Positions 2,905-63,419 of a DNA stretch of 64,000 nucleotides are shown here, piece after piece. Under the pieces are notes generated by a model. It saw only the letters and a program-made list of their open reading frames with translations, ran no database searches and was not told the DNA's origin. Every line of letters starts with the position of its first letter. Position 1 is the stretch's first letter. This DNA comes from an uncultured Solirubrobacterales bacterium (GTDB lineage: Bacteria; Actinomycetota; Thermoleophilia; Solirubrobacterales; JBBDJG01), in assembly GCA_963780475.1 (NCBI GenBank), contig CAWACB010000008.1, positions 617,857 through 681,856 of the forward strand, read 5' to 3'. The position numbers and the translations under genes were made by a program.

Positions 2905-2918
2905 GTCCTAATGATGGC

Positions 2919-5049
2919 CTACGCGCGGGCGGGAGCTAGTCGCGCGGGGCGCGGCTGAGGACGAGCGTTTCGCCCGAGCCCTGGTGGCACGCGTGGCCGC
3001 CGCCTGGGCACTCGGGGCAGCTGCAGCGACGGGTCGAGCTTGTTCTCGCCGCGCTTGGCCTTGCCCCGGCGCACCACCTTCTCGCAGCCCTTGACGAAGT
3101 CGATCCGGTCGACGCGCGCGGTGTCGCGGCCGGCGCCGCAGTCCACCATGTCCTCGGTGCCGTTCCGGGCATTCACCGAGTCCTTGCCGGGTCCGCCGCG
3201 GTAGATGTTGCCGCCGGGGCCGCCGACCAGACGGTCGCGGCCGACTCCGCCGTAGAGCGCGTCGTCGCCCGGAGCCGCCTACGAGTCGGTCGTTGCCCCA
3301 GCCGCCGTAGAGCTGGTCGTTGCCGGTCCCGCCGACCAGGGTGTCGTTACCGACGGCGCCGTTCGGCGGTGGCGCGGCGCTGATGCTCGCGATCGACGCG
3401 CCGTCGTTCTCGGGCGGCGATGCGTTGCCGCACATGTCGCCGTAGGCGACGTCGGGACCCGCTTGTGTGCGGATGCTGTCGTCTCCCCCAAGCCCGCAGA
3501 GCTTGTCGTGCGACGTCGTGCCGATCAGCCGGTCAGAGCCGGCCTTGCCGACGCGCAGGCTGAAGTGCGCGCCACCGGCGTGACCGCCGTGCATGTCGCC
3601 GGCCGCGTGGCCCTCGCCGTGCCCGTCGCCGCCGTGCGCGCCGTGATCGCCCGATCCGAGATCAGGCGGCGGCGCCGGGGTGTTCGGGAAGAGGAACTCG
3701 CGCTGGTAGACATGAGCGAGTCCGCCAGGGTTGTCAGTGCCGAGGTTGGTAGCCGTCGAGAGAAAGGCGACCCCCGATGCATCGGCGGAGATCGCCCCGT
3801 CGAGCACCTCTCCATCGGCCGGCAGCACCGGCGGCGCCCGCGCCACGGCTGCCCAGAGTGGTCCTGTCATAGCTCAGGGTGCTGCCTTGAACGAGCACGC
3901 CTGAGCGCAGGAACAGGTCGGCACCTTCGCCGTCCTCGTCACTGAGGTTCGTCGCCGCCGACACGAAGGAGACGACCCGCCCCTCCGCCGACAGCGTTGG
4001 CGCGGAGGCGTTTGCATCGGCCGGCGCGCCAGTCTCGGCCTGGCGCGCGGCTGACCAGGGTCGTGGAGTTCGCCTGGGTGTCGCGCACGTAGGCCTGGGT
4101 GCCGGATACGCCGGCCGTCAGGTTCGTCGCCCGCGACACGAATGCGACGTGTCGCCCGTCCGCGGAGATCGACGGCTGCGACGACGCTCCATCGGCTGGC
4201 TGGCTGATGATCCCGCTGATCGTCGTGCGGCTCAGGTGCGCCAGGAAGTTGAACCGGCGGTCCAGGACGTAGACGTTGGAGAAGGCGTCGATGTCGACGT
4301 TCATCAGGTTGTCGGCATCGGAAGTGAACGCGACCTTCAGGCCGCTCGCCGAGATCGATGGGTCGTAGCTGGGGCCATTGGCCGCGCCAGTGGCCGGCTT
4401 GCTGGCGAGGCTCGTCGCGCCTGCGCTGGTGTCCCAGACGAACACATCCGTGACGGTGTCGTCGTCAACGGCCGAGATGTTGGTCGCCGCCGAGTCGTAG
4501 GCGATCAGCGAGCCGTCAGCCGAGACCGACGGATTGTGCGACGCGCCGTCCGCCGGGCCGGCCGTCGCGCGGCTCACGAGCGTCGTCGTGCCTGCTGTCA
4601 CGTCGCGGACGTAGATGTTCGTCACCGAGTCGTCGTCGTCCGCCGCTCAGGTTGTCGGCGTCGGACTCGAACGCGACGAGGTTCCCGTCCGCGGAGATGG
4701 AGGGACCGCGTGAGTCGCCGCCTGCCGCAGGTGCTCCGTCCATGCCGTCGGCGCGGCTGACAAGCGTCGTCGTTCCCGTGTCGAGGTTCCGCACGTACAC
4801 GCTGCTCACCGGGACGTCCTCCGGCGAGGCGGGCTCCGGCCGCGAGGTGAAGGCAACCAAGCGCCCGTTGCCGGAAGCGGCAACCCCAGGCTCCGCCGCG
4901 AGGGCCCCGCCGTCTGCGCCGTCCGCGCGGCTGACCAGAGTCAGGTCATCGACCGCGCCGCTTGCCAGCGCGGGAACCACCGCCGCCGCCAGCACGGCGA
5001 ACGCGATCGCCAAGCGCAGCCGGGCGTGCGACGCGCGGACAGGGCTCAA
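2919..5049 (-). pseudogene. secreted PD40 (TolB-like) repeat / His-rich / RTX Ca-binding repeat protein, frame broken at least 4 times
   Basis: Signal peptide MSPVRASHARLRLAIAFAVLAAAVVPALASG. Repeats of the form SISADG..VAF.S.A.NL are spread over ORFs 4516-5049, 3939-4625, 3734-3964 and 2908-3870. Then come GDHGAHGGDGHGEGHAAGDMHGGHAGGAH, GGTGNDQLYGGWGNDRLVGG, and a tail MVDCGAGRDTARVDRIDFVKGCEKV (ORF 2919-3176). Frame changes lie near 4640, 4043, 3850 and 3268. Confidence 0.7.
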
Positions 5050-5294
5050 CGCGAGCCGTCCTCCTTGCGCAGTTCGTCCTCGAGCGAGATCGCCCGAATC
5101 GAGTGGTCGTCCGGCAGCTTCTCCAGCACCTGGTGGATGACGCGCGCGACGTCGTGTTCGTCGTGGCCGAAGTCGTCCAGCAGGCTCTTGAGAGCGGTGT
5201 GTGTGATCTTCATCTGAGCCGGAGTCAGCTCGAGGTGATAACGGAAGTCTTCCGCTGCTCCCTCGGCCGCGCCGGCCGCATCAGGCTCTGCCAA
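5046..5294 (-). CDS. small acidic hypothetical protein
   Basis: 82 aa with a protein-like, non-repetitive sequence. GGGAGG lies 4 nt before a TTG start. Its stop overlaps the start of the downstream secreted gene (TTGA). Confidence 0.55.
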   Translation of the reverse strand: MAEPDAAGAAEGAAEDFRYHLELTPAQMKITHTALKSLLDDFGHDEHDVARVIHQVLEKLPDDHSIRAISLEDELRKEDGSR

Positions 5295-5403: not shown

Positions 5404-5796
5404 TTAGTCCCGCAGGCGCACGCTCCGGGTGACCGAGTTGCGGCCGTTCTTGTTGCGCGCGACGATCGTCACGCGGGCGCTGACCTTCTTCCCGTTGCGG
5501 ATCGCGCGCTTGACGGCCTTCTTGTCGGCGCGGCTGAAACGCAGGTAGACCTGGTTGGTGAGGTGGATCACCACCGACCGGGTCCCCCCTCTCATCCGGC
5601 GGCCCATCGCCTTGCCGCTGACCGCGAGCTTGGCTCCCTTCTGATGCACGGCAGCCAGGATGTAGACGTGGTCCACGTCCTGGGACGCCGGGATCTTGAC
5701 CGTCATACCAGGCGCCTTGGCAGCCGCCGGCACGATGGCAAAGGCGAGCGCCACCAACGCGGTCGCGGACAGGACACAGAAGAAGCGCCTGCTCAC
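5404..5796 (-). CDS. small secreted protein with a basic beta-strand-rich module
   Basis: 130 aa with signal peptide MSRRFFCVLSATALVALAFAIVPAAAKA. The GTG start overlaps the stop of the upstream monooxygenase-like gene (GTGA). Its C-terminal pattern resembles the tails of the 60582 and 63446 proteins. Confidence 0.65.
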   Translation of the reverse strand: MSRRFFCVLSATALVALAFAIVPAAAKAPGMTVKIPASQDVDHVYILAAVHQKGAKLAVSGKAMGRRMRGGTRSVVIHLTNQVYLRFSRADKKAVKRAIRNGKKVSARVTIVARNKNGRNSVTRSVRLRD

Positions 5797-7602
5797 GGAA
5801 TGAAGACCCCCTGGGTCGCGAACAGAGTGTTGGGGCCGGTCGACGCAACGCCGTCGGGACCGCCGTCGAACACCTTCACCTGGGCCAGCTCCCAGTTGGA
5901 GCGCCGCGTCTCGCGCACGCTCCCAGGCTGGACAGCGTCGGCCGTGGTGGACACGGCGCAGGTGCTGCCGATCGTCGTGCTTGCGGTTGTGGCGCAGGGG
6001 ACCGTCACGGGGAAGTCGACGCTCTGCCCCACTCCGACCTCCGCGGGACCGTTGTTGCGGTCCGTGATCTGGAGCGTCGGCCGCAGCTGCAGCTGGCCGC
6101 TGTAATCGGTCAGGTCACTCGCCCGGCGAACGTCGGTGACGTTGACGGTGATGTTCACGTCGGCCTCGTCGGCGACCGTGCCGGCGTTCCCGTTCACCAC
6201 CACGAACTTCGCCGAGCCGATGAAGTTCGCCGCCGCGCCGTTGGCGTCCGGCGAGCCCGTCGTCAGCTGGCCCGACGACCGCACCGGCGGGTTGCACGAG
6301 GAGTAGTTGAGCGGCGCGGCGTGCACACGGTTGGGCGCGCCGCAGTTGTTGTAGGCCGGTACCAGTGAGGCGTAGAACGGCGTGGCCGCCTTGGGCCGGA
6401 CGTAGCCGGGCTCCGTCGGTGACAGGTAGCCGACCATGATCCCCATCGCGTCCGTCTGGTTGAAGCCGGTGTTGTTCTGGTACTCGCTGTGGATCTTGAT
6501 CACCTGGCCGGCGTTGAGCTTGTAGCCGTCATCGTGCGGCCACGCTGCGCTCGGCGGATAGGCCTCGGCCTGCGCTCCGCCAGGCACGGATGTCTGGATG
6601 CCGCACAGGCTCACCGTGTCCAGGTGGCCCCGCCACTGCGTGCCGGCGAATGGAGTTCCGAAGTAGCCCTCCGCGCGGCACATCGTGGCGCCCGGTGATG
6701 TCGGCGGGCGGCGGGTTGTTGGGCGGGTTCGGCCCGTAGTAGTCGGAGGCCGGGCCGCCGACCAGCTCGGCGGAGGTGGCGATGCCGCCGCCCTCGGCGG
6801 CACAGTGGTCGAGGCACGCGCCCTGCCCGGTGATGTCGACGTCGTGCATGTGCCCGGACATGGCGACGAAGCGACCGCTGACGGTCGACGTCCACTGCTG
6901 GTGGGTGTCCGAGTAGCCGCCGGGGATCGTGTACTCCGAGTCGCCGCAGGCAGCGCCCATGCCATCGACGTCCAGCCAGATGGGACGGACCGGATCACCG
7001 GCGGCGATGTGGCGCCAGGTGACCTCGATCCAGACAGTCTTGACCGTGGTATTGCGGTTCACGAGGTGGGTGATCATGGTCCAGCTGCCATTGAGGTTCT
7101 GGTAGCCGAACTTGCCCGGCAGGTGCACGTGCGTGCGCTCGTTGCCGGCCGCGAAGAACCGGTCGCCGAGCTGGCCCTGGCCGGCGCCCGGGCAGGTTGC
7201 ATCCTGCTTGCCGGGGTTCGTGATCGAGAAGTGGTGCATCATCACGCCGCCGTCGAGGTTCGCCGTCGACGTGGCGCCGGGGGTCGACGCATTGGCGCCG
7301 AAGACGAGGCTCGGCACCATGTCGGTGATGTAGCAGTTGCTGCAGGGCGCGGTGATCGAGTCGATCTGGTTGTGGATCTGGCCCAGGGTCGGCCCAGAAG
7401 CCGCGGGAATGTTGAACGGGCCGTAGCGGGCCTGCACGATCGTCCCCGGGCGTGCCGGCAGGTCGGCGCGCGGGTCGCTGAACGACCCAAGTGTCGTGTT
7501 GACCGTGTTGAGCGCCGAGGCGGGCGCGGCGACGGCCAGCGATGCGATCACCGCCATGACGGCGATCAGCCCAGCGTGCATTGCTCTCGAACTGTTCCCC
7601 AT
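5793..7602 (-). CDS. secreted PHM/DBH-like copper monooxygenase-like protein, paralogue A (1-nt frame break near 6692)
   Basis: ORFs 6529-7602 and 5793-6998 join as DYYGPNPPNNPPPADITG | ATMCRAEGYFG by comparison with paralogue B. Has a signal peptide. Motifs: GVMMHHF, ITHLVN, GHMHDVDITG, TDAMGIMVGY. GAGGGGG lies before the ATG at 7602. Confidence 0.75.
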
Positions 7603-7710
7603 TTAGTCCCCCTCGGCTCCGATGCCGGCCTGGATGCGATGGTAACCCACGCGCTCCAGGCTAGCTCCGTTACCAAGCGGCGATTCGGGCACGCGAGCGC
7701 GCCCGTCGCC

Positions 7711-9531
7711 TCACGGGACGAAGACGCCCTGGACCGCGAACAGCGTGTTCGGGGCGGTCGAGGCGAGCCCGTCGGCTCCGCCGTCGAACACCTTCACCTG
7801 AGCCATCTCCCAGTTGGAGCGGCGGGTTTCCCGGACCGCCCCGGGCTGCACGGCGTCCGCCGACGTATTCACCGCGCACGTGCTGCCGACCGTGGTGCTG
7901 ACAGTCGTCGTGCACGGCACCGTCACGGGGAAGTCGACGCTCCCGACGCCGACCTCGGCCGGCCCGTTGTTGCGGTCGGTGATCTGGAGCGTGGGCCGCA
8001 GTTGGAGCTGCCCGCTGTAGTCGGTCAGGTCGCTCGCCTTGCGGACGTCGGTGACGTTCACCGTGATGTTCACGTCGGCCTCGTCCGCCGTCGTGCCCGT
8101 GTTGCCGTTGATTGCCACGAACTTCGCCGAGCCGATGAAGTTCGCCGCCGCGCCGTTGGCGTCGGGCGACCCGGTCGTCAGCTGGCCCGACGACCGCACC
8201 GGCGGGTTGCACGAGGAGTAGTTGAGCGGCGCGGCGTGCACCCGGTTGGGCGCGCCGCAGTTGTTGTAAGCGGGGACCAGCGACGCGTAGAACGGCGTCG
8301 CTGCCCGCGGGCGCGGATAGCCGGGCTCGGTCGGCGAGATGTAGCCGACCATGATCCCCATCGCGTCCGTCTGGCTGGAGCCCGTGTCGTTCTGGTACTC
8401 GCTGTGCACCTTGATCACCTGGCCGGCGTTGATCTTGATGCCGTCCGCCACGGGCCAAGCCCCGCTCGCCGGATAGGCGAGGGCCTGGGCGCCCGGAGGT
8501 ATCGAGGAATTGATCATGCAGAGGCTGACCGTGTCCAGGTGGCTGCGCCACTCGGTCGGGTTGAACGAGCCGAAGTACCCCTCGGACCGGCAGATGGTGG
8601 TGCCGGTCAGGTCGGATGGTGGTGAGGTGGGGGTCCCGTTGTTGGTCGGCGGGTTGGGTCCGTAGTAGTCGGTTGGACCACCCACCAGTTCGGCGGAGAC
8701 GGCGATTCCGTTGCCCTCGTTGGCGCAGTGGTTGGTGCAGGCGCCCGGTCCCGTGATGTCGACGTCGTGCATGTGCCCCGAGATGCCGACCAGCCGGCCG
8801 CTGATGGTCGAAGTCCACTGCTGATGGGTATCGGAGTAGCCCTGCGGGATCGTGTACTCGGAGTCCCCGCATGCCGCTCCCATGCCGTCGATGTCCAGCC
8901 ACATCGGCCGCACCGGGTTGGCCTGCGGCACGTAGCGGAAGATCAGCTCGATGTAGACGCTCCTGGTCGAAGTGTTCCGGTTGACCAGGTGGTAGATCTG
9001 ATTCCAGTTGTCGTTCTCGCCCTGCTGGTAGCCGAAGCCGGTCGGCAGATGCATGTGAGTGCGCTCGTTGCCGGCGGCGAAGACCCGCTCGCCGGTCAGC
9101 CCTGGGCCCGACCCGGGACACGTCAGGTCCTGCTTCCCGGTTCCCGGATTGGAAGCCAGCATGTGGTGCAGCATCACGCCGGAGTCGAGGTTCGCGTTCG
9201 TGCCGGGCGCGCCACCCGCGCCGTTGGCGTACACCAGTCCGGGAATGATGTCCGTGACGTAGCAGTCGCTACACGGGGCGGGCACGCCGAACTGCACTGC
9301 GTTGTGGATCTGGCCGAGGCTCCCTCCCGAGGCCGCCGGAATCGTGTAGGGCCCGTAGTCGACCTTCACCCACGTGCCGGCGCGGCTGGGCAGGTCGTTG
9401 CGCGCATCGCTCGGCGTCGGTATCACCGTCGGCCCGACGTGCGCCGAAACCGGCGCGGCAGCAGCCAGCACCGCGATCGCCGACAGCAACACGGCAAGCG
9501 CGAACACCGTTGTCCCGGACCTTCTCCCCAT
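7711..9531 (-). CDS. secreted PHM/DBH-like copper monooxygenase-like protein, paralogue B (intact)
   Basis: 606 aa from the ATG at 9531 (GGAGGGG RBS), with signal peptide MGRRSGTTVFALAVLLSAIAVLAAAAPVSA. Motifs: GVMLHHM, then 58 aa to IYHLVN, then 72 aa to GHMHDVDITG, later TDAMGIMVGY. A conserved C-terminal domain of about 210 aa follows. Confidence 0.8.
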   Translation of the reverse strand: MGRRSGTTVFALAVLLSAIAVLAAAAPVSAHVGPTVIPTPSDARNDLPSRAGTWVKVDYGPYTIPAASGGSLGQIHNAVQFGVPAPCSDCYVTDIIPGLVYANGAGGAPGTNANLDSGVMLHHMLASNPGTGKQDLTCPGSGPGLTGERVFAAGNERTHMHLPTGFGYQQGENDNWNQIYHLVNRNTSTRSVYIELIFRYVPQANPVRPMWLDIDGMGAACGDSEYTIPQGYSDTHQQWTSTISGRLVGISGHMHDVDITGPGACTNHCANEGNGIAVSAELVGGPTDYYGPNPPTNNGTPTSPPSDLTGTTICRSEGYFGSFNPTEWRSHLDTVSLCMINSSIPPGAQALAYPASGAWPVADGIKINAGQVIKVHSEYQNDTGSSQTDAMGIMVGYISPTEPGYPRPRAATPFYASLVPAYNNCGAPNRVHAAPLNYSSCNPPVRSSGQLTTGSPDANGAAANFIGSAKFVAINGNTGTTADEADVNITVNVTDVRKASDLTDYSGQLQLRPTLQITDRNNGPAEVGVGSVDFPVTVPCTTTVSTTVGSTCAVNTSADAVQPGAVRETRRSNWEMAQVKVFDGGADGLASTAPNTLFAVQGVFVP

Positions 9532-9634
9532 TACCCCTCCTGCTAGGAAACTGCAGCGATGGTAGTGGAGATGGCTAGGCTTTGTGCGGCGAGCGTCACG
9601 CGCTCGCGGACGGGCGGTTGAGCGAGGAGATCCA

Positions 9635-10367
9635 TTGAGGCCTAGCAAGACCCTGCCGTCGATCGCGCTCGCGCTGGGGCTGCTGCTGATCTGCGCGACG
9701 GCCGCGTCGGCGGGTGGGAGAAAAGAGGAGCAGTCGAGCGTCGAGCGGCTACGGCCCGCCGTCGAGGGGATCGACCTCGAGGTCGTCGACGGCGACAAGT
9801 TTCTCGCCCTGACGAACGAGTCCGGCAAGGTCATCCTCGTGAAGGGCTACGACGACGAGCCCTACCTGCGCTTCCTCGCCGGCGGAGTCGTCCAGGAGAA
9901 CCGCCGCTCACCCTCCAAGTTCGTCAACGACGACCGCTTCGGGCTGACGCCGGTACCGGCCGCCGCGAACTCCGACGCCACGCCCGTTTGGCGAACCGTT
10001 TCCCAGAACGGCACGTACAGATGGTTCGACCATCGCACCCACTCGATGGACAAGGGAATCCCGTCCGCAGGTGAAGGACCCCGAGCAGCGCACCAAGATC
10101 TTCGACTGGAACGTGCCGATGGAGGTCGGCGGCGCGCCGGTGGCGGCGCTCGGGACCCTCGAGTGGGTCCCTGCGTCCGAGTCCTCGTCGGACGGCGGCA
10201 TGTCGACCGGCGCGATCATCGCGATCGCAATCGGCGTGCTGCTGCTGCTCGGCGCGTTCGCCTATCTGCTTTCGCGGCGCCGCCGGCGCACGGTGCCCGC
10301 CGCCGCGGCGGGCGGGGTCGCGCCTCCCCCCGAGCCGGATCAGCCCAAGGAGAAGGAAGTCTGGTGA
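9635..10367 (+). CDS. uncharacterised secreted, C-terminally membrane-anchored protein (1-nt frame break near 10068)
   Basis: TTG start 5 nt after GAGGAG, with signal peptide MRPSKTLPSIALALGLLLICATAASA. The sequence ...TYRWFDHRTHSMDKGIPS continues in ORF 10071-10367 as VKDPEQRTKIFDWNVPMEVGG...LEWVP, followed by a TM helix and an RRRRR stop-transfer. Confidence 0.6.
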
Positions 10368-12171
10368 GGCGACGCGCGCTCGTGGTCCTCGCGCTGGCCG
10401 TGACAGTGCTCGCGGTGGCTCCGGCCGTCGCCATGGGCCACGCGGTCGTGGAGGGCACGGCGCCGCTGTCGGGCGAGACGGTCAAGCGCCAGCCGGCACA
10501 GATCGAGTTCCGTTACAGCGAGCCCGTCGAGGGCAACTTCGGCGCGATCCGCGTATTCGACAGCAAGAGCCGGCGCGTCGACAGCGGCGAGTCGTTCCAC
10601 CCCGGCGGCCAGGGATCGCGACTCGCGGTGCGACTCAAGCCGAACGTTCCAAAGGGCACCTACACCGCCACCTACCGCGTCATCTCCGCCGACAGCCATC
10701 CCGTCTCGGGCGGCTTCGTGTTCTCGGTCGGCCGCGCGTCGGCGAGCGGCGCGACGGTCTCGGACCTTCTCAACGACCGCGGCGCCAGCGGTGACGTCAC
10801 CGAGTTCTTCTTCGGCGTCACGCGGACGCTCCAGTACGCGGCGACGGCGATCGCGATCGGCGCCATCTTCTTCCTGCTCGTGATCTGGCTGCCCGCCCTT
10901 GCCTCGGTCGCCGGCGCGGGCGGCGAGTGGTCGCGCGCATCGGAGCGGTTCGCGCAGCGGCTGAGCCTCTTGCTCGCCGTGGCGGTCGTGACCGGCGTGG
11001 TTTCGTCGGCGCTCGGCATCGTGTTCCAGGGCGCGACCGCCGCGGGCGTGTCGTTCTGGAGCGCGCTCGACTGGGACGTCGTGGACCAGGTGCTCGGCAC
11101 GCGATTCGGAACGGTGTGGGGCATCCGGCTGCTCGTATGGCTGGCGCTGGGCGGGCTGCTGGTCGCGGCTTTCTCCGGCGCGCGCCGCCCCGTGCTGCGT
11201 CCGGCGTCCGTCGGGGCGACCGGCCTGGCGCTCGGGCGCCCGGGCCTGCGGAACGTGACGATCGCGGTCCTCCTCCTCCCGCTCGCCTTCCTCGCCATCG
11301 CTCCCGCGCTGGCCGGGCACGCCGGCCTGCAGGACCCGACCGCCGTCCTCTTCCCCGCCAACGTCGTCCACGTCATCGCGATGAGCATCTGGGCGGCCGG
11401 GCTCGTGACGCTGGTGCTCGCCGTCCCGGCCGCGACCCGCCAACTCGAAGGAACGGACCGCAGCCGCCTGCTGGCGGCCAACCTGGTCCGCTTCTCGAAC
11501 ATCGCGGCGGTGTGCGTGGCCGCGCTCCTGATCACGGGCGTCCTCCAGGCCTGGTTCGAGATCGGCGCCTGGAACAAGCTGTGGGACACGAAGTTCGGCG
11601 TGGCGGTGCTGATCAAGGCCGGCCTGCTCCTGATACCGCTCGCGGCGCTGGGCGCCTACAACCGCCGCCGTATCGTCCCGGAGCTGCGTGAGATCGCAGG
11701 CGGGCTCCGGCTACACCTGGTCGCACGGGCCTTCTGTTGAGGCGGTCGCTGCTGGCCGAGATCGCGCTGATCGCCGTGGTGCTGGGAGTGACCTCTGCGC
11801 TCGTCAGCTACCCACCGCCGGAATCGCTCGGGAACACGTCCGGGCCGTTCGCGGAGACGACGTCGTTCGGCCCGGCGGACATGCAGCTGACGGTCGATCC
11901 TGCACGGGTCGGCGCGAACGCGATGCACATCTATCTGACCGACAAGCGCACCGGCACCCAGTGGGACCAGCTGAAGGAGTTGAAGCTGTCGGCATCGCTG
12001 CCCAAGCAGGACATCGGCCCGGTCGCGCTCGACACGCGCAAGGCAGGCCCCGGTCACTTCGTCGTGGGCGGTGCGACCTTCGGCGCGGCGGGTGACTGGC
12101 AGCTGTCCGCCGAGGGCCTGGTCAGCGAGTTCGACGCGTACTACGCAAAGATCGACGTGCCCATCAAATAG
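10364..12171 (+). CDS. CopC-CopD-YtkA-like fusion, copper resistance/uptake membrane protein (frame break near 11703)
   Basis: GTG start overlaps the upstream stop (GTGA). The signal peptide is followed by a mature N-terminal His (AMG|HAVVEGTAP) and a CopC fold pattern (GTYTATYRVISADSHPVSGGFVF). A multi-TM CopD region follows. The last TM and a YtkA-like domain continue in ORF 11737-12171. Confidence 0.8.
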
Positions 12172-13108: not shown

Positions 13109-14953
13109 TCAGGCTGATCCGAACGGTCTCGGAGCTGCCGCCGCCCTGACCTTGGCGCGCAGCTGAACGCTCTTCGCGCTGCGCGGCACGTAGCAACGGC
13201 CGATCATCAGCCGGCTGCGGCCCTTGCCTGATCGCTTGGCGCGACGCAGGCGCGGACGCGACGAGAAGCGGCCCCGCTCATCCACGCGCAGGTGCGCGGC
13301 GGTGCTCCAGGTGCCGCGTGCGCGGACCTGCAGTGAGACGCTGCGCGACCCGCTCGCCGACGAAACCGCTCCGTACACCCGGCCCTTGACGATCAGGCGG
13401 CCGCCGCGCCAGAGCGAGTCGGTGTGGCTCTTGAGCCGCACCCGAGTGCGCGACTTGGCCTTGGTGCCGGTCGTGCCAGTCTCCGTCGCGGGCGGTCCCG
13501 CCGGTCCCAGGGTGCCAACCGGCCGGTATGGGGTCGGCGGTCCGGAGATCCGGCGGATGGACAGCGGTCCGCCGGGACCCGTCGGCGGTCCGGTCGGGCC
13601 AGTCGTGCCGGTCGGGCCCGACGGTCCAGACGGACCAGTCGGACCAGTGGGCCCTGTCGGACCAGTGGGACCAGTGGGCCCTGTCGGACCAGTGGGACCA
13701 GTCGGACCTGTCGGTCCGGATGGACCGGTGGGACCAGTGGGACCGGTTGACCCGGTCGGGCCGGTCGGGCCGGTCGGGCCGGTCGGGCCGGTCGGGCCGG
13801 ACGGACCAGTCGGACCAGTCGGACCAGTGGGACCAGTGGGACCGGTGGGACCAGTGGGACCGGTCGGGCCGGTCGGTCCGGACGGACCAGTGGGCCCCGT
13901 AGGACCAGTCGGCCCCGTAGGGCCAGTGGGACCTGTCGGCCCGGTCGGACCGGTCGGGCCGGTCGTCCCGCCGGGCTCCACGTTCACGAGGCGCAGGTCA
14001 TCGGGTCGGAGCCGCACGGAGGACTGGCTCAGCCCGGCCTGGTCCCAGAGCTCCGCGTGGGTGGAATCCGCGTCCAGCTCGAAGCTCGCGCCCTGGTCCA
14101 CTATGTAGGCGCCGTAGATCTTGAGCGCCCGCACGACGTTGCGCACGCCGATGCTCGCGTCTGCTGCGGGCTCGTAGTCGGAGCGCAGCACGTAAAGCTG
14201 GCCGTACTTGACTCCGCACCCGCAGTTCCCATCGCTCTTCACGGCCGGCGGATTGATGTACTCGCGCGCTACGCGCGGCACTGTGATCCCAAGGGCGTGG
14301 TCGAAGCCGAGCAGCGCCTCCTCGGCGGTCAGAGTGGTCGTGACGAGCGGCGTTCCCGACCCGCGGGCGGTGGCGTTCTCGCAGCACGTCGCCAGGCCGT
14401 TCCCGTTCAGGTCCCAGACGGCGAGGTTGGCCGCCTCGTAACGCCCGGCGAGGACGTTGGCCTCCGTGCAGGGCGGGCCGCTGTCGCTGCCCATCTTGCA
14501 ACGCCAGAACGTCCATGCGCGCGTCTTGTCCGCCGAGACGATCACCAGGTGCCCATCGGTGCCGGCGGCCGCGTACATACCGGCCGGGACCGGGATGCAC
14601 TCGCCGTGATAGGCGACGTTGCCCTTGGCCCAATCCGGATGACGGACGTTGGCCGTGCGGCACTGATCGAGCGGTGAGGCCCAGAAAGTCGGCTTCGCGT
14701 AGTTGATGTCCGGCGGGATGCCGGAGATGTTCATCGTTCCGTCGTAGCTCGTGAACTCGCTCGCGTACGGATTGCTGGCAGTGACCTCGCCCTTGGCGGC
14801 TGCGGGCACGTTCCAGAGACTGTTGGCCTGAAAGGCCCTGAAGGGTGCCGCGGCCGCGGGCTGGACGCCGGCTGTCAAGAAGATGACCAGAAGCGCGACG
14901 GCTGCGAGAAGCGAGCGCGCCAGCTTCCTCTTGGGAAACGCTGATCCGTGCAT
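13109..14953 (-). CDS. secreted protein: unknown N-terminal globular domain + collagen-like (GPT)n region + basic C-terminal domain
   Basis: ATG at 14953, 3 nt after GGAGGAG. Signal/TM segment [28 protein letters not shown]. About 40 uninterrupted G-X-Y triplets, mostly GPT with occasional GPS, GST and GTT. Confidence 0.8.
13565..13965 (-). repeat. coding 9-nt periodic tandem repeat (GPT collagen-like triplets)
   Basis: Plus strand shows reiterated ggaccagt(c/g)gg(a/g)cc(a/g)gt units. These translate on the minus strand as GPTGPTGPT... Confidence 0.85.
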
Positions 14954-15096
14954 CGGCTCCTCCGCCCAGGTTGAGCCGCCCGTTTGCAAGTCCACAGTGC
15001 GTCACGGGCTCCGCGACGCGGTCGGAAGCTTTGCAGACTTCGGGGACGTGCGTCGGTTCGCGACGCCTTTTCTTTACGACCCGGTAAGAGTTGCGC

Positions 15097-34977: not shown

Positions 34978-36228
34978 CTACAGGTAGCCCATTGGATCAA
35001 CCGGCGTGCCGTTGACCCTGACCTCGAAATGCACATGCGGGCCGAAGCAGTGACCGGTGCATCCGACCGTGCCGATCACCTGGCCCTGGCGGACGCTCTG
35101 GCCGACGTGCACCCCGATCGAGGTCTGGTGGCCGTAGCAGGTCGCCACTCCGCCGCCGTGCTGGATGCAGGTGTAGTTCCCGTAGCCACCGACCCAACCG
35201 GCGATCGCGACGCTGCCGCCGGCCGACGCGCGGATCGGCGTGCCGCTCGGTGAAGCGATGTCGACGCCCGCGTGCAGGCGGCCCCAGCGCTGGCCGAAGC
35301 CGGACACGACCGGCCCGCTCACCGGCCAGCCGTAGCTGCCACTTCCCTGCCGCTGCGGGCCCGCGGGCACCGGCGCACCCTGCAGCTGCGCGGTAACCCG
35401 CGCCGAGGCGGCTTCGAGCGCCCGCACGTCGCCCTCGAGGTCGTGGCGGTGGCCACGCGTCTCGTGCAGCGACGAGCGCTTGCGGTCGCGGGTCGACGCC
35501 AGCGCGGCTTCGCGCTCCTGGATGCCGGCGCGCGTCTCCGCCAGCTCGGCGCGCTTGGCCTCGATCGTGGCGACCGCGTTCGCCGCCTGGTCCTTGAGCG
35601 TCAGCAGCAGCGCCCGCTTGCGTGCCGAGCGCTCCTTCAGGTCGCGCACGCGGTCGACGATCGCCGAGTCCTGCTTGCCGATCCGGCTCAGGTAGTCGGC
35701 CCGGACCAGCATGTCCTCGAAACCATCGGACTCGAGCACGACGCTCACGACGTCTGGCGGGTCCGACTTGTAGATCTCGATCAGCCGCTCGGCCAGCACT
35801 CCCTGTGACTGGCGCAGCTCCTTGCGGAGCTTCAGGTAGCGCAGGTGCTCGCGGTCGTAGCGGGCCTGCACCCGCGCCAGCTCGGCACGCTTGACCGCCA
35901 GCGTGCGCTCGGCGCTCGCCTCGCTGCGGCGCAGCGAAGCGATCTCGCTCGAGAGCCCGCGGATCTTGCCGCTCAGCGCGCTGATGTCGGTGGTCAGAAC
36001 GCCCTCGCGCTGTTTGACGTCCTGCAGCTTCGCCCGCTTCTTCTCGAGCTTGGAGTTGATGGAGGAGAGCGAAGCGCCGCTGGAAAGCATCGGCAGCGCC
36101 GCGATCAGCGCAAGGCAGGCCACGGCGAGCACTGCGGCGAGCAGCGCCAAGGCGCGCGCATCGGGGCGCGCAACAGCGCGATTCATTTCGTTGCTCCGGC
36201 GTCGTGCCGGGCGGTGTGGCTCTGACAT
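34978..36228 (-). CDS. M23 family metallopeptidase with coiled-coil N-terminal region
   Basis: Has a TM/signal segment and a long coiled coil. The M23 catalytic core follows (HAGVDIASPSGTPI...GPHVHFEVRVNG). ATG at 36228 directly follows the riboswitch GAGAGAGA. Confidence 0.85.
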   Translation of the reverse strand: MSEPHRPARRRSNEMNRAVARPDARALALLAAVLAVACLALIAALPMLSSGASLSSINSKLEKKRAKLQDVKQREGVLTTDISALSGKIRGLSSEIASLRRSEASAERTLAVKRAELARVQARYDREHLRYLKLRKELRQSQGVLAERLIEIYKSDPPDVVSVVLESDGFEDMLVRADYLSRIGKQDSAIVDRVRDLKERSARKRALLLTLKDQAANAVATIEAKRAELAETRAGIQEREAALASTRDRKRSSLHETRGHRHDLEGDVRALEAASARVTAQLQGAPVPAGPQRQGSGSYGWPVSGPVVSGFGQRWGRLHAGVDIASPSGTPIRASAGGSVAIAGWVGGYGNYTCIQHGGGVATCYGHQTSIGVHVGQSVRQGQVIGTVGCTGHCFGPHVHFEVRVNGTPVDPMGYL

Positions 36229-36234
36229 ATCTCT

Positions 36235-36397
36235 CTCGAAACGCTTACGGGGTTAGCTGTCGGGCTCGCGCGAAGAGAGTCGCGCTACGCCTTGCCATCT
36301 GGGGCGATGGCGGCGATTCGCCCCAATCGAAATCTTGGGTGGTTCCCCCGCTCTTCCCGGGCGCGGGAGGTGCGCTTGCGGGAAGACTCAGCGGCAT
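36235..36397 (-). ncRNA. cyclic-di-AMP riboswitch (ydaO/yuaA class) in the M23 peptidase leader
   Basis: Minus strand reads GCCGCUGAGUC-[UUCCCG...CGGGAAG]-AGCGGGGGAACCACCCA...UUGGGGCGAAUCG...GAGCCCGACAGCUAACCCCGUAAGCGUUUCGAGAGAG. This parallels the B. subtilis ydaO element (CGCUUAAUC...AGCGGGGGACCCA...UGGGGUGAAUC...ACCCGUCAGCUAACCUCGUAAGCGUUCGAAAGGAGAG). Confidence 0.85.
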
Positions 36398-36558
36398 TGC
36401 TCCGTGATCCGTACCTCCTGTCACGTGCTTCTTGCCTGCAAAGAGCGGGAGAAAGCTAGCAGGAAGACGGCGCCGGACGCAGTTTCCCTTCCCGCCGGCG
36501 CCCTGCTGCAGCGCGGATTGCGAGGCCGTCCCGATCGGCGAGCAATATCTTGCGGCCC

Positions 36559-60581: not shown

Positions 60582-63419
60582 TCAGCGAACCTTGACCACC
60601 ACACTGCCGAGCCGGGTGGAGGGGCTCCCCGCCCGGTGCCTCGTCCTGACGGTCACGTTGACGCGCACGCGCTTTCCCGCGCGCCGCAGCTTCCGCTGAG
60701 CTGCCCGGGCGACGCGCACTTTGACGGTCGCCGACCGGCGCTGGCCGAGGAAAAAGGAGCGGTTGCCCAGCCTCAGCGTGCGCTTGCGCCCCCCGGGCTT
60801 GGAGGGGACGCGTGCACTGACCGCGACGGAGCCCCGGTTTGCCTGCTTGCACGTCAACCGCAGAGGCACAACGCCGCTTCTGGTGAGCTGAGCCGTTCGC
60901 CCGGTGACGCTGCAGCGGCCTTTGACACTGAGACCGTTCAGATCCTCGCAATCTCGTCCGACCCGGTCTCCGGCGTCAGCCCGCACGGCATCCTCCTCGG
61001 CGCCGCAGGCGACACTTCCCCGGGCACCGTCCACGGTGTTGATCAGGTCCTTGCCGGAGCCGGTACGGACGCTGCGGATGTCGGAGCCGACCCGGTCGCC
61101 CTCGCCCCGTTCGCCGTCGTTTGCCTGGCCGTCGAAGCTCACGCGTACGCGGCCGGTGCGCAGGGAGTAGTCCACGGTGTCGTTGCCGCCGCCGCCGCCG
61201 ATTGCATCGCCGCCGCCCCCGCTGTCCAGGACGTCGTCGCCGGGCCCGCCGGCGAGGGAGTCGCGGCCGTTGCCGGCGCGGATGAGATCGGCACCGGTCG
61301 AGCCGTCCAGCCGGTCGTCGCCGTCGGCGCCGTAGATGACGTCGTTGTTCGCGCCACCGGCAACCAGGTCGCCGCCCCCGCGCGCGTCCAGTACGTCGTC
61401 TCCCGAGCCGCCGTCCAGGGTGTCGGCGCCCTCGCTGCCGGTCAGCCGGTCATTGCCCGCGCCGCCTACCGCGCCCTCGACCTCGGAGAGGGCGTCGTTC
61501 TCGCCGGGCTCGCCGGCCGAGCCGGGCGCCGCCAGGTCGACTGTCACCGGCGCCTGCCGTCGCGCGTAGCTGACGTTGTCCGAGCCGGGGCCGCCCACGA
61601 GCGCGTCCGCGCCGGTGCCACCGTCGAGCGAGTCGTCGCCCGGTCCTCCGAGCAGCCGGTTCCCGCTCCCGTCGCCCACGAGCACGTCTGGCCCGCTTCC
61701 GCCAAGCACGGTGGCAATGTCGCCGGCGACGTTGTCCCCCTCGCCCGGGGCCCCGTCGTTGGCGATTCCGTCCAAGCTGACGCTGAGGGCGTCCGCACGG
61801 GCGGAGTAGTCGGCCGTATTCTCGCCCGGCCCGCCCGTCATCTCGTCCGGCCCGGCGCCGCCCGCGAGGACGTCGTGGCCTCCCTCGCCGGATAGCGCGT
61901 TCGCGCCGGAGTCGCCGGTCAACGTGTCGTTGTTGTCCGACCCGACCACGTTCTCGCCGCCGGAGAGGGCATCGGTACCGGCGCCGACTGTCTCCTGAAA
62001 GCCGGCGACACCGAGGTCGACCGTCACAGGCCCCGTCGAGGACGCATACGAGAAGGTGTCCACGCCCGTGCCTCCGTCGAGGGAATCGTTGCCGAGATTG
62101 CCCTCGAGAATGTCATTGTCGGGGCCGCCGTCGAGCACGTCCGGTCCGGCTCCGCCCACGAGCGCGTCGTTGCCTCCTTCGCCCGAGAGCACGTTGGCGC
62201 CGGCGTCCCCGAACAACGCGTCGTTGCCGCCGGAACCGCGCAGGTTCTCGCCGTCGGAGAGGGCATCGGTCCCAGCGCCGGCCGTGTCCTGATCGCCGGC
62301 AACGCCGAGGTCCACCCTCACGGGCCCCGTCGCGGACGCATAAGAGAAGGTGTCGACGCCTTCATCGCCGTCGAGAGCGTCGGTGCCCGACCCGCCCTCG
62401 AGGGTGTCATCGTCAGGGCCGCCATTCAGGCTGTCGGCGCCGTCTGACCCCTCGACCTGGTCGTCACCGGTGCCGCCGTCGAGCACGTCCGCATCGGCAC
62501 CTCCGTCGAGCGAATCGGAGCCGTCGCCGCCGGTCAGGGTGTCGTCGCCGGTGCCGCCACTCAGAGTGTCGGCGCCGTCTGATCCCTCGACCTGGTCGTC
62601 ACCGGTGCCGCCGTCGAGCACGTCCGCATCGGCACCTCCGTCGAGCGAATCGGAGCCGTCGCCGCCGGTCAGGTTGTCGTCGCCTGTATCGCCGATCAAT
62701 TCATCGGTTCCCGAAGCACCGGTCAGCTGGTCGTTTCCCGGTCCTCCGTTGAGCGAGTCCATGTCGGCGCCGCCGTCCAGCGAATCGGAGCCGTCACCGC
62801 CGGTCAGCTGATCGTTATCCGCCCCGCCGTCGAGGGTGTCCGTGTCCGTACCTCCGTCGAGCGAATCGGCGCCGTCGCCACCAGTCAGCGTGTCGTCGCC
62901 GGCGCCGCCCGTCAGCTGGTCGTCGCCCGTGCCGCCGTCGAGCGAGTCCGTGTCGGCGCCGCCGTCGAGCGAATCGGAGCCATCGCCACCGGTCAGGGTG
63001 TCGTCGCCCGTGCCGCCGATCAATTCATCGGCCCCCAGGGCGCCGGTCAGCTGATCGTTTCCGGATCCTCCGTCGAGCGAGAGTGGCAGCGCCAGCGCCG
63101 GGTCCGGCACGAAGGAGTCGTCCCCGTCGTCGAGTTGGACCACGATCGACGCGGCGGTCGCGCTGGGACAGGTGGCGATGTTGGGAGTTCCGGGGTCAAC
63201 GCTGCACCCATCGACGCCATCTGCGTCCAACACCTCGACACCGCCGGTGGCTGTGGTGCCGGCATCGGTGAACGTCAACGACCCGGCGGAGTCCGCAATC
63301 GCAAGCGCATTCGCCTCGCCGGACGCGGCGGCATACGTGACCGTCTGCGACCCCGCGTCGAAGCCTACGGTTGCAGCATGCGCAGCGGGGGCCCCCGCCG
63401 AAGCGAGGAGCCCCCCCAA
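60582..63419 (-). CDS. large secreted RTX-type calcium-binding repeat protein with a basic C-terminal module
   Basis: 945 aa from a TTG start, with dozens of GGxGxDxL nonapeptides. The signal-like N-terminus probably begins 9-10 codons upstream (IKRKILVVLLGGLLASAGAPAAHA) at a non-canonical codon. Confidence 0.85.
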   Translation of the reverse strand: MGGLLASAGAPAAHAATVGFDAGSQTVTYAAASGEANALAIADSAGSLTFTDAGTTATGGVEVLDADGVDGCSVDPGTPNIATCPSATAASIVVQLDDGDDSFVPDPALALPLSLDGGSGNDQLTGALGADELIGGTGDDTLTGGDGSDSLDGGADTDSLDGGTGDDQLTGGAGDDTLTGGDGADSLDGGTDTDTLDGGADNDQLTGGDGSDSLDGGADMDSLNGGPGNDQLTGASGTDELIGDTGDDNLTGGDGSDSLDGGADADVLDGGTGDDQVEGSDGADTLSGGTGDDTLTGGDGSDSLDGGADADVLDGGTGDDQVEGSDGADSLNGGPDDDTLEGGSGTDALDGDEGVDTFSYASATGPVRVDLGVAGDQDTAGAGTDALSDGENLRGSGGNDALFGDAGANVLSGEGGNDALVGGAGPDVLDGGPDNDILEGNLGNDSLDGGTGVDTFSYASSTGPVTVDLGVAGFQETVGAGTDALSGGENVVGSDNNDTLTGDSGANALSGEGGHDVLAGGAGPDEMTGGPGENTADYSARADALSVSLDGIANDGAPGEGDNVAGDIATVLGGSGPDVLVGDGSGNRLLGGPGDDSLDGGTGADALVGGPGSDNVSYARRQAPVTVDLAAPGSAGEPGENDALSEVEGAVGGAGNDRLTGSEGADTLDGGSGDDVLDARGGGDLVAGGANNDVIYGADGDDRLDGSTGADLIRAGNGRDSLAGGPGDDVLDSGGGGDAIGGGGGNDTVDYSLRTGRVRVSFDGQANDGERGEGDRVGSDIRSVRTGSGKDLINTVDGARGSVACGAEEDAVRADAGDRVGRDCEDLNGLSVKGRCSVTGRTAQLTRSGVVPLRLTCKQANRGSVAVSARVPSKPGGRKRTLRLGNRSFFLGQRRSATVKVRVARAAQRKLRRAGKRVRVNVTVRTRHRAGSPSTRLGSVVVKVR
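62432..62701 (-). repeat. 135-nt in-frame tandem duplication inside the RTX gene
   Basis: Units 62432-62566 and 62567-62701 are identical over about the first 107 nt apart from 2 substitutions. Each unit encodes 45 aa, i.e. five nonapeptides (LTGGDGSDSLDGGADADVLDGGTGDDQVEGSDGAD twice). Confidence 0.8.

Follow-up and report, generated by a model that had tools for sequence, protein, structure and literature searches.

We analysed a window of 64,000 nucleotides from an uncultured soil actinobacterium of the order Solirubrobacterales (contig CAWACB010000008.1, positions 617,857 to 681,856), in which two tandem genes, here called paralogue A and paralogue B, code for secreted proteins. An initial annotation, made from the sequence alone, had noticed that both proteins carry the copper-ligand layout of peptidylglycine alpha-hydroxylating monooxygenase (PHM) and dopamine beta-monooxygenase (DBH). 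As described below, the predicted fold of these proteins and their conserved motifs suggest that A and B are probably an unannotated bacterial branch of the PHM-type copper monooxygenases.

The paralogue pair and its candidate ligands

Both genes lie on the minus strand, in a region of ~69% G+C, and each product has an N-terminal signal peptide, so that the tandem of co-oriented secreted paralogues that had been proposed is borne out. Their features are the following (CuH and CuM are the two copper sites of PHM; a slash marks the end of a signal peptide).

7711..9531, minus: paralogue B, intact, 606 residues, analysed with an AlphaFold2 (AF2) model and Foldseek
B, residues 1-30: signal peptide (...AAAPVSA/HV)
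8920..9441, minus: PHM-like domain 1 of B (CuH-like), residues ~31-204, from conservation and hhalign
8326..8919, minus: PHM-like domain 2 of B (CuM-like), residues ~205-402, from conservation and hhalign
7714..8325, minus: C-terminal module of B, residues ~403-606, from profile search
9163-9168, minus: codons of H122/H123 of B (GVMLHHM)
8989-8991, minus: codon of H181 of B (IYHLVN)
8773-8775 and 8767-8769, minus: codons of H253 and H255 of B (GHMHDVD)
8359-8361, minus: codon of M391 of B (TDAMGIMVGY)
5793-7602, minus: paralogue A, in two reading frames
6691..7602 (within the open reading frame 6529-7602), minus: N-terminal part of A, frame 1, with the signal peptide, domain 1 and the start of domain 2, including HH, H and HxH
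6687..6694, minus: frameshift of A, a single surplus base within the run ACCGGGCGCC
5793..6689 (within the open reading frame 5793-6998), minus: C-terminal part of A, frame 2, with the rest of domain 2 and its Met motif, the C-terminal module and the stop codon
5796-6410, minus: C-terminal module of A

Paralogue B starts with the ATG at 9531, which has a GGAGG just 5′ of it and is backed by the homologues, as these align from residue 1; its stop codon is at 7711-7713. Export through the Tat pathway, raised by the MGRR start of the protein, was rejected because the twin arginine is kept neither in A nor in the family consensus.

The ligand layout previously described for B was found unchanged: the motifs GVMLHHM, IYHLVN, GHMHDVD and TDAMGIMVGY follow one another with spacings of 58 (HH to H), 72 (H to HxH) and 136 residues (HxH to Met). 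Domain 1 contains further invariant residues (C87-x-x-C90, C138 and H161), domain 2 additionally conserves C265, H268, C269, C314, H331, C338 and H376, and the catalytic part of the family has eight conserved cysteines in all. The HxH-to-Met distance departs from that of PHM, which is 70 residues. A Cys-rich insert of about 135 residues had been proposed to lie there, but 136 residues is the length of the whole interval; the ~66 that are extra with respect to PHM are spread over the loops of domain 2 and hold C265-x2-H268-C269, C314, H331 and C338, with four cysteines among them.

All six ligands are also present in A, in the same motifs, with spacings of 55, 72 and 133; the HH-to-H distance is therefore not the 58 residues that had been attributed to both proteins. 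Additionally, the initial annotation took A for one continuous gene and overlooked the frameshift near 6687-6694, which splits it into two open reading frames in different frames. Frame 1 begins with the signal peptide (...AAPASA/LN), covers the N-terminal 304 residues and gives way to frame 2 inside ACCGGGCGCC, at the junction of ...PPPADITG and ATMCRAEGYFG.... Skipping one base yields a 602-residue conceptual product; of 92 positions at which 58 homologues do not vary, it retains 91, also downstream of the shift. Because two other genes of the cluster (gene X and a PD40-RTX gene, both described below) are also shifted in comparison with their orthologues, the frameshift in A is probably an assembly error, which from the sequence is more likely than a pseudogene. 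Gene X is shifted near 10060-10070 and the PD40-RTX gene (2908-5049) is in three frames, while each is a single open reading frame in orthologous loci. A and gene X thus have one single-base frameshift each and the PD40-RTX gene at least two, which makes a minimum of four in ~8 kb, and the set suggests an error-prone (long-read) assembly and not pseudogenes.

The identity between A and B is 54% in domain 1 and rises towards the C-terminus, to 78% for domain 2 and 91% for the module. Gene conversion between the two genes was considered and rejected, since the identity at third codon positions is alike in domain 1 (0.61) and in the module (0.68); the gradient therefore reflects constraint and not recent conversion.

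Fold and sequence comparison with PHM

The AF2 model of B, built on 58 sequences, is almost wholly beta (mean pLDDT 82.9, pTM 0.70), with the proposed ligands in or beside the strands 119-128, 175-184, 245-254 and 387-399. When the model was compared with the PDB by Foldseek, ranks 1 to 17 were all rat PHM (E values 2.1e-7 to 5.5e-5, probability 1.00), with alignments of ~400 columns, ~12% identity and TM scores, normalised to PHM, of 0.36-0.51. The proposal of a PHM fold thus passes this structural check. The next matches were PNGase Bb (E 6.9e-5), double jelly-roll capsid proteins and PNGase F (E 3.9e-3). PHM and PNGase F have been described as the eukaryotic and the bacterial branch, respectively, of Pfam clan CL0612 (PMC8812541), and PHM followed by PNGases and double jelly-roll capsids is the structural neighbourhood expected for that clan.

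For the comparison of sequence profiles, the family was aligned by hhalign with a PHM-family alignment of 36 sequences, of which the listed members carry PF01082 and most also PF03712; the rat PHM sequence is identical to PDB 4E4Z_A, whose residue i is PAM residue i+44. The full-length alignment is below threshold (probability 4.3%, E 0.0094, 105 columns), and its register pairs MLHHM with TVHHM, NERTHMHLPTGFGY with RNAPPTRLPKGVGF, IYHLVN with LQVHYG and YTIPQG with TVIPPG. It thereby sets the HH pair on H107/H108, H181 on H172 and LPxGFGY on LPKGVGF. Domain 1 by itself aligns in the same register (probability 30%, E 5.4e-4). For domain 2, the top alignment places DAMGIM on DEMCNL, so that M391 corresponds to M314 (E 3.4e-3), and a second, weak one places GHMH on VHTH, with H253/H255 on H242/H244 (probability 0.2%). 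As a control, the columns of the PHM profile were shuffled 150 times: the observed scores of 29.1, 25.1 and 25.5, against null values of 13.7±2.6, 13.4±2.5 and 15.8±2.5, were reached by none of the shuffled profiles. This points to a sequence signal to PHM that is weak but real, in a register that superposes the ligands. The resemblance of local contexts between these proteins and PHM, claimed from the sequence at the outset, is consequently upheld, as the best alignments use the register then proposed. Other settings were uninformative: an alignment of the family with a single PHM sequence gave just a spurious match of 36 columns, and the global mode of hhalign gave a meaningless alignment.

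Distribution of the family and conservation of the ligands

A search of 5.8 billion protein clusters returned 318 relatives with a single protein as query and 441 with a profile. Every named member of these ~440 clusters is a "hypothetical protein", and no precomputed Pfam domain is recorded on them except RTX repeats on two; NCBIfam gave no match for A or B. When each species was represented by a single genome, the family mapped to 28 loci; a genome often has two or three copies, and tandem copies recur in two of the loci (L003 and L006). The hosts are metagenome-assembled genomes of Solirubrobacterales or Thermoleophilaceae, one being labelled just as Actinomycetota bacterium.

The check on ligand conservation was passed by the proposed residues. 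H122, H123, H253, H255 and M391 are invariant both in the 58 sequences and in 16 diverse catalytic domains, picked at <62% identity to one another, while His is kept at position 181 in no fewer than 90% of the former and in 14 of the latter. Members that are 38-40% identical to B retain all six ligands. One member (P0122, 720 residues) has an insertion of ~50 residues right after the HxH, with two copies of D-x-D-G-x-V-N-D-G-C-P that resemble calcium-binding motifs.

With regard to more distant relatives, a profile search with the catalytic domains only returned the same tight family, and the exhaustive search with the full-length profile was swamped by the C-terminal module, which masks distant relatives of the catalytic part. 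From the other side, the most distant PF01082 matches of a search with rat PHM, among those checked, came from eukaryotic picoplankton (algae) and not from bacteria. Pfam does list a few bacterial PF01082 entries. A literature search found no paper on bacterial PHM-fold copper enzymes, and PHM and DBH are tabulated as eukaryote-only cuproproteins in a review of metalloproteomes (PMC7435645).

The C-terminal module

The last ~205-210 residues of both proteins (GYPRPKGATP...QGxFVP) form a beta-sandwich with four invariant cysteines. The initial annotation left this part as an unassigned domain of about 210 residues. The absence of a family match stands, as no Pfam or NCBIfam model matches it and the module modelled alone (pLDDT 75.9) has no significant PDB match by Foldseek (none below E 5.6e-3). 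What had not been recognised is that it is a generic module of thousands of secreted proteins. The exhaustive profile search found 4195 representative proteins, and nearly all of the 150 listed match profile positions ~385-592 alone. The listed proteins are 220-1634 residues long, and the module invariably closes them at their very C-terminal end. The N-terminal parts of 90 module-bearing proteins are diverse and include PD40 propellers (38 proteins), DPPIV_N, FG-GAP, NHL, HtaA, S8 subtilases and DUF11, among others; otherwise unrelated secreted proteins that end in the module number in the thousands (for example, P0137-P0268). In two members of the enzyme family, RTX repeats take the place of the module.

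Stand-alone or differently fused copies of the module also occur a few kilobases from the copper cluster in other loci (L002, 5661-6302; L006, 1840-2529; L008, 3838-4488; L016, 4385-4981; L022, 4501-5121; L004, 1827-2426).

Since it ends so many unrelated secreted proteins, the module is, judging from its distribution, a generic lineage-specific appendage that probably lies outside catalysis. Its role is probably surface retention or sorting, which makes it a candidate anchoring or sorting domain.

Gene neighbourhood

The pair is flanked by genes on its own strand and by divergent genes that include a CopC-CopD fusion.

5404..5796, minus: small secreted protein, 130 residues, whose GTG start overlaps the TGA stop of A (GTGA)
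5046..5294, minus: protein of 82 residues, no signal peptide, acidic and His-rich (HDEHD)
2908..5049, minus: secreted PD40 beta-propeller and RTX calcium-repeat protein, in three frames in the window
9635..10367, plus: gene X, 240 residues, with a signal peptide, a ~150-residue domain with the motif WFDHR(T/I)HSM and a C-terminal membrane helix
10364..11740, plus: CopC-CopD fusion (PF04234, E 3.9e-19; PF05425, E 1.7e-16; both above cut-offs)
11737..12171, plus: YtkA-like small protein, overlapping the copCD stop, with a weak match to PF13115 (E 0.05)

The overlap between the stop codon of A and the start of the 130-residue protein, from which translational coupling had been proposed, is present. 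This protein shows a mean column identity of 74% over seven orthologues, above that of the enzyme, with M31, H51 and H78 invariant. The 82-residue protein is likewise better conserved than the accompanying enzyme (60-82% identical over 11 of the 28 loci), and neither of the two has a Pfam or NCBIfam match. The PD40-RTX protein is, in locus L003, a single open reading frame of 713 residues with PF07676 and PF00353. Downstream of the enzyme gene, the 130-residue protein is found in 13 of the 28 loci, the 82-residue protein in 11 and a PD40 protein in 14 (with RTX repeats in eight).

On the other side, the pair had been described as standing back to back with a CopC-CopD gene. The CopC and CopD domains were confirmed at 10364-11740, but gene X intervenes. 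Gene X is divergent from B (its copy in L003 is at 9117-9839 on the minus strand) and always lies upstream of copCD. Nothing in Pfam, NCBIfam or the PDB matches its product, a candidate for a new copper-handling protein. In half of the loci (14 of 28) the enzyme gene is divergent from X, and in 11 of these 14 the CopC-CopD and YtkA-like genes follow X. The suggested co-occurrence with copC/copD thus holds in 11 of the 28 loci; the CopC-CopD arrangement is also present in L029, besides these. The YtkA-like orthologues are 51-59% identical and keep the same position in 11 loci. The intergenic region between B and X contains no conserved palindrome or operator across seven loci.

A second, unrelated context was found in 11 further loci (L007, L009/L030, L011, L012, L017-L019, L024, L025, L027 and L028), where a paralogue immediately follows an error-prone polymerase cassette (ImuB/DnaE2) and copper genes are absent from the vicinity. 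A gene of 126 residues that follows this second type of paralogue was considered as an equivalent of the 130-residue partner and rejected, as the two are unrelated.

Next to the cluster in the window, a DUF4118-HisKA-HATPase sensor kinase and an OmpR-type response regulator (798-2904, minus) are encoded, which are not in the orthologous loci. Three other features of the window are a secreted protein at 13109-14995 (minus) with a repeat array at 13586-13965 (~42 tandem 9-bp units coding for collagen-like (GPT)n triplets), a c-di-AMP riboswitch at 36226-36403 (minus; RF00379, 81 bits), and a repeat array at 61844-63080 with units of 27, 81, 108, 135 and 294 bp, which probably belongs to a large RTX-like calcium-binding repeat protein.

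Comparison with known systems

PHM, the catalytic core of PAM (PDB 1PHM, 1OPM and 3MLJ; PF01082 and PF03712), shares with the bacterial proteins the two-domain beta-sandwich fold, for which it is the best PDB match, and six ligands that agree in type and order and lie in equivalent motifs; both are secreted and disulfide-rich. By contrast, the identity is just ~12%, the bacterial family is below the Pfam thresholds, and its members do not have the PAL partner domain and carry the appended bacterial C-terminal module. DBH, tyramine beta-monooxygenase and MOXD1 (PDB 4ZEL for the group) belong to the same catalytic core family as PHM and illustrate that its scaffold accepts non-peptide substrates. 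The bacterial proteins differ from them in the absence of a DOMON domain; DBH is not among the 50 best Foldseek matches, and there is no detectable sequence similarity.

The gene cluster recalls bacterial clusters of the cop/ycnKJI type (CopC-CopD, YcnJ), which likewise combine a CopC-CopD fusion with small extracytoplasmic partners, here adjoining the enzyme genes. However, the locus has no YcnI/DUF1775, multicopper oxidase or recognisable regulator, and its partners (X and the 130- and 82-residue proteins) belong to no described family.

Weighing the interpretation

The family falls outside the Pfam sequence models, yet it has the predicted fold and both ligand sets, CuH and CuM. With a probability of roughly 0.6, we read A and B as exported, cell-surface two-copper monooxygenases on a PHM scaffold, members of an unannotated family confined to Solirubrobacterales. 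The parts of this reading differ in strength: the PHM fold is very likely, the presence of two PHM-like copper sites is likely, and monooxygenase chemistry has slightly better than even odds.

Several observations weigh against it. Pfam gave no match at E<=1 for B or for either part of A, including PF01082 and PF03712, so the check by hmmscan that had been suggested failed; and neither phmmer nor the 58-sequence profile found any chain among the PDB sequences at E<=10, including PHM or DBH. The hhalign probabilities are low (4-30%), that of the HxH alignment being just 0.2%. The Foldseek superposition on PHM has an RMSD of ~9 Å, with TM scores normalised to the query of 0.22-0.28; in a predicted model, such an RMSD fits two hinged domains with long loop insertions, and the global superposition is loose. 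H181 is replaced by Asp in two of the 16 diverse members, and copper genes are absent from the surroundings of half of the loci. The invariant additional histidines (H161, H268, H331 and H376), together with the C-x2-HC beside the HxH, could indicate another or an additional metal site. In the PHM-substrate crystal structure, R240, N316 and Y318 bind the carboxylate and backbone of the peptidylglycine, and none of them is present in the family: the residue two before H253 varies among S, G, Y, A and N, without any R, two after M391 there is an invariant Ile, and the position four after M391 is variable. Finally, the family may lack an ascorbate-like donor.

As the equivalents of R240, N316 and Y318 are missing, a glycine-extended peptide is unlikely as a substrate of the family. 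The extra Cys and His of domain 2, together with H161 and H376, may be engaged in disulfides or may make up an additional metal or redox site.

Among the alternatives, the one that survives best, although improbable, is that these proteins handle copper without oxygenation, as a surface store, buffer, chaperone or cuprous oxidase in the place that CopA/PcoA takes in classical cop clusters, their PHM-like sites merely holding or oxidising the metal. The adjoining CopC-CopD and other small extracytoplasmic proteins, the many extra conserved His, Cys and Met, and the absence of the substrate-binding residues of PHM would fit such a role. Nevertheless, the exact set of three His plus two His and one Met, a specialised arrangement for activating O2 and moving electrons over a long range, is kept in the PHM register. 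Moreover, this alternative accords poorly with the half of the loci that have no copper genes, and the presence of several paralogues per genome with divergent domain 1 fits substrate diversification better.

Less probable still is an enzyme of another metal, such as a Zn or Fe hydrolase or oxidase built on GHxHDxD with H268, H331 and H376, in which the PHM-like pattern would be partly a coincidence on a shared fold. In its favour, PHM has no equivalent of the HxHD, D258, H268, H331 and H376, all of which vary little or not at all in the family. However, such an enzyme would leave unexplained why an invariant HH pair, H181 and the Met align with the PHM ligands, and also the copper genes of the neighbourhood.

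The least probable alternative is that these double jelly-roll proteins are PNGase F-like or act in some other way on carbohydrates or glycans, with histidines that are structural or bind another metal. It can appeal to the PNGases and other double jelly-rolls among the Foldseek matches and to PNGase F, likewise secreted, being the bacterial branch of the same clan (PMC8812541). Against it, PNGase F is no metalloenzyme that carries these ligands and scores well below PHM, the best PNGase entry trails the 17 PHM entries by ~1 to 2.5 orders of magnitude, the profile signal is to the PHM family and in the ligand register, and no Pfam N-glycanase match was found.

Proposed function and its implications

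If A and B are PHM-type monooxygenases, they would be exported through the Sec pathway as disulfide-containing proteins whose first ~370 mature residues adopt the PHM two-beta-sandwich (double jelly-roll) fold. In domain 1, H122, H123 and H181 would form a CuH-like electron-transfer site, and in domain 2, H253, H255 and M391 would form a CuM-like site for O2 activation. The protein would then work as a non-coupled binuclear copper monooxygenase that hydroxylates a C-H bond of an extracellular substrate, presumably one other than a glycine-extended peptide. The C-terminal ~205 residues would serve in surface retention or sorting and take no part in catalysis. Copper handling may be supplied, or co-regulated, by the divergent X, CopC-CopD and YtkA-like genes, and a candidate for a partner or substrate is the secreted 130-residue protein, whose gene is coupled to that of the enzyme.

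More tentatively, and with odds that we place a little below even, the family could be the first prokaryotic lineage of non-coupled binuclear copper monooxygenases, ancient or horizontally acquired, with several paralogues per Solirubrobacterales genome, anchored by the module, served by a copper-supply cluster of its own, and using a reductant other than ascorbate to act on extracellular substrates of a new class. The extra invariant His and Cys might in that case form a third metal or redox site.

In any case, the analysis brings to light components that had no annotation, namely the catalytic family (~440 clusters), the C-terminal module (thousands of proteins) and three conserved partners of the CopCD cluster. 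If the bacterial family is what it appears to be, it would provide a handle on the evolutionary origin of the enzymes of peptide amidation and catecholamine synthesis, and a bacterial model for the long-debated crossing of electrons over the ~11 Å between CuH and CuM. For the soil Actinomycetota, it would mean a new copper-dependent C-H hydroxylation chemistry.

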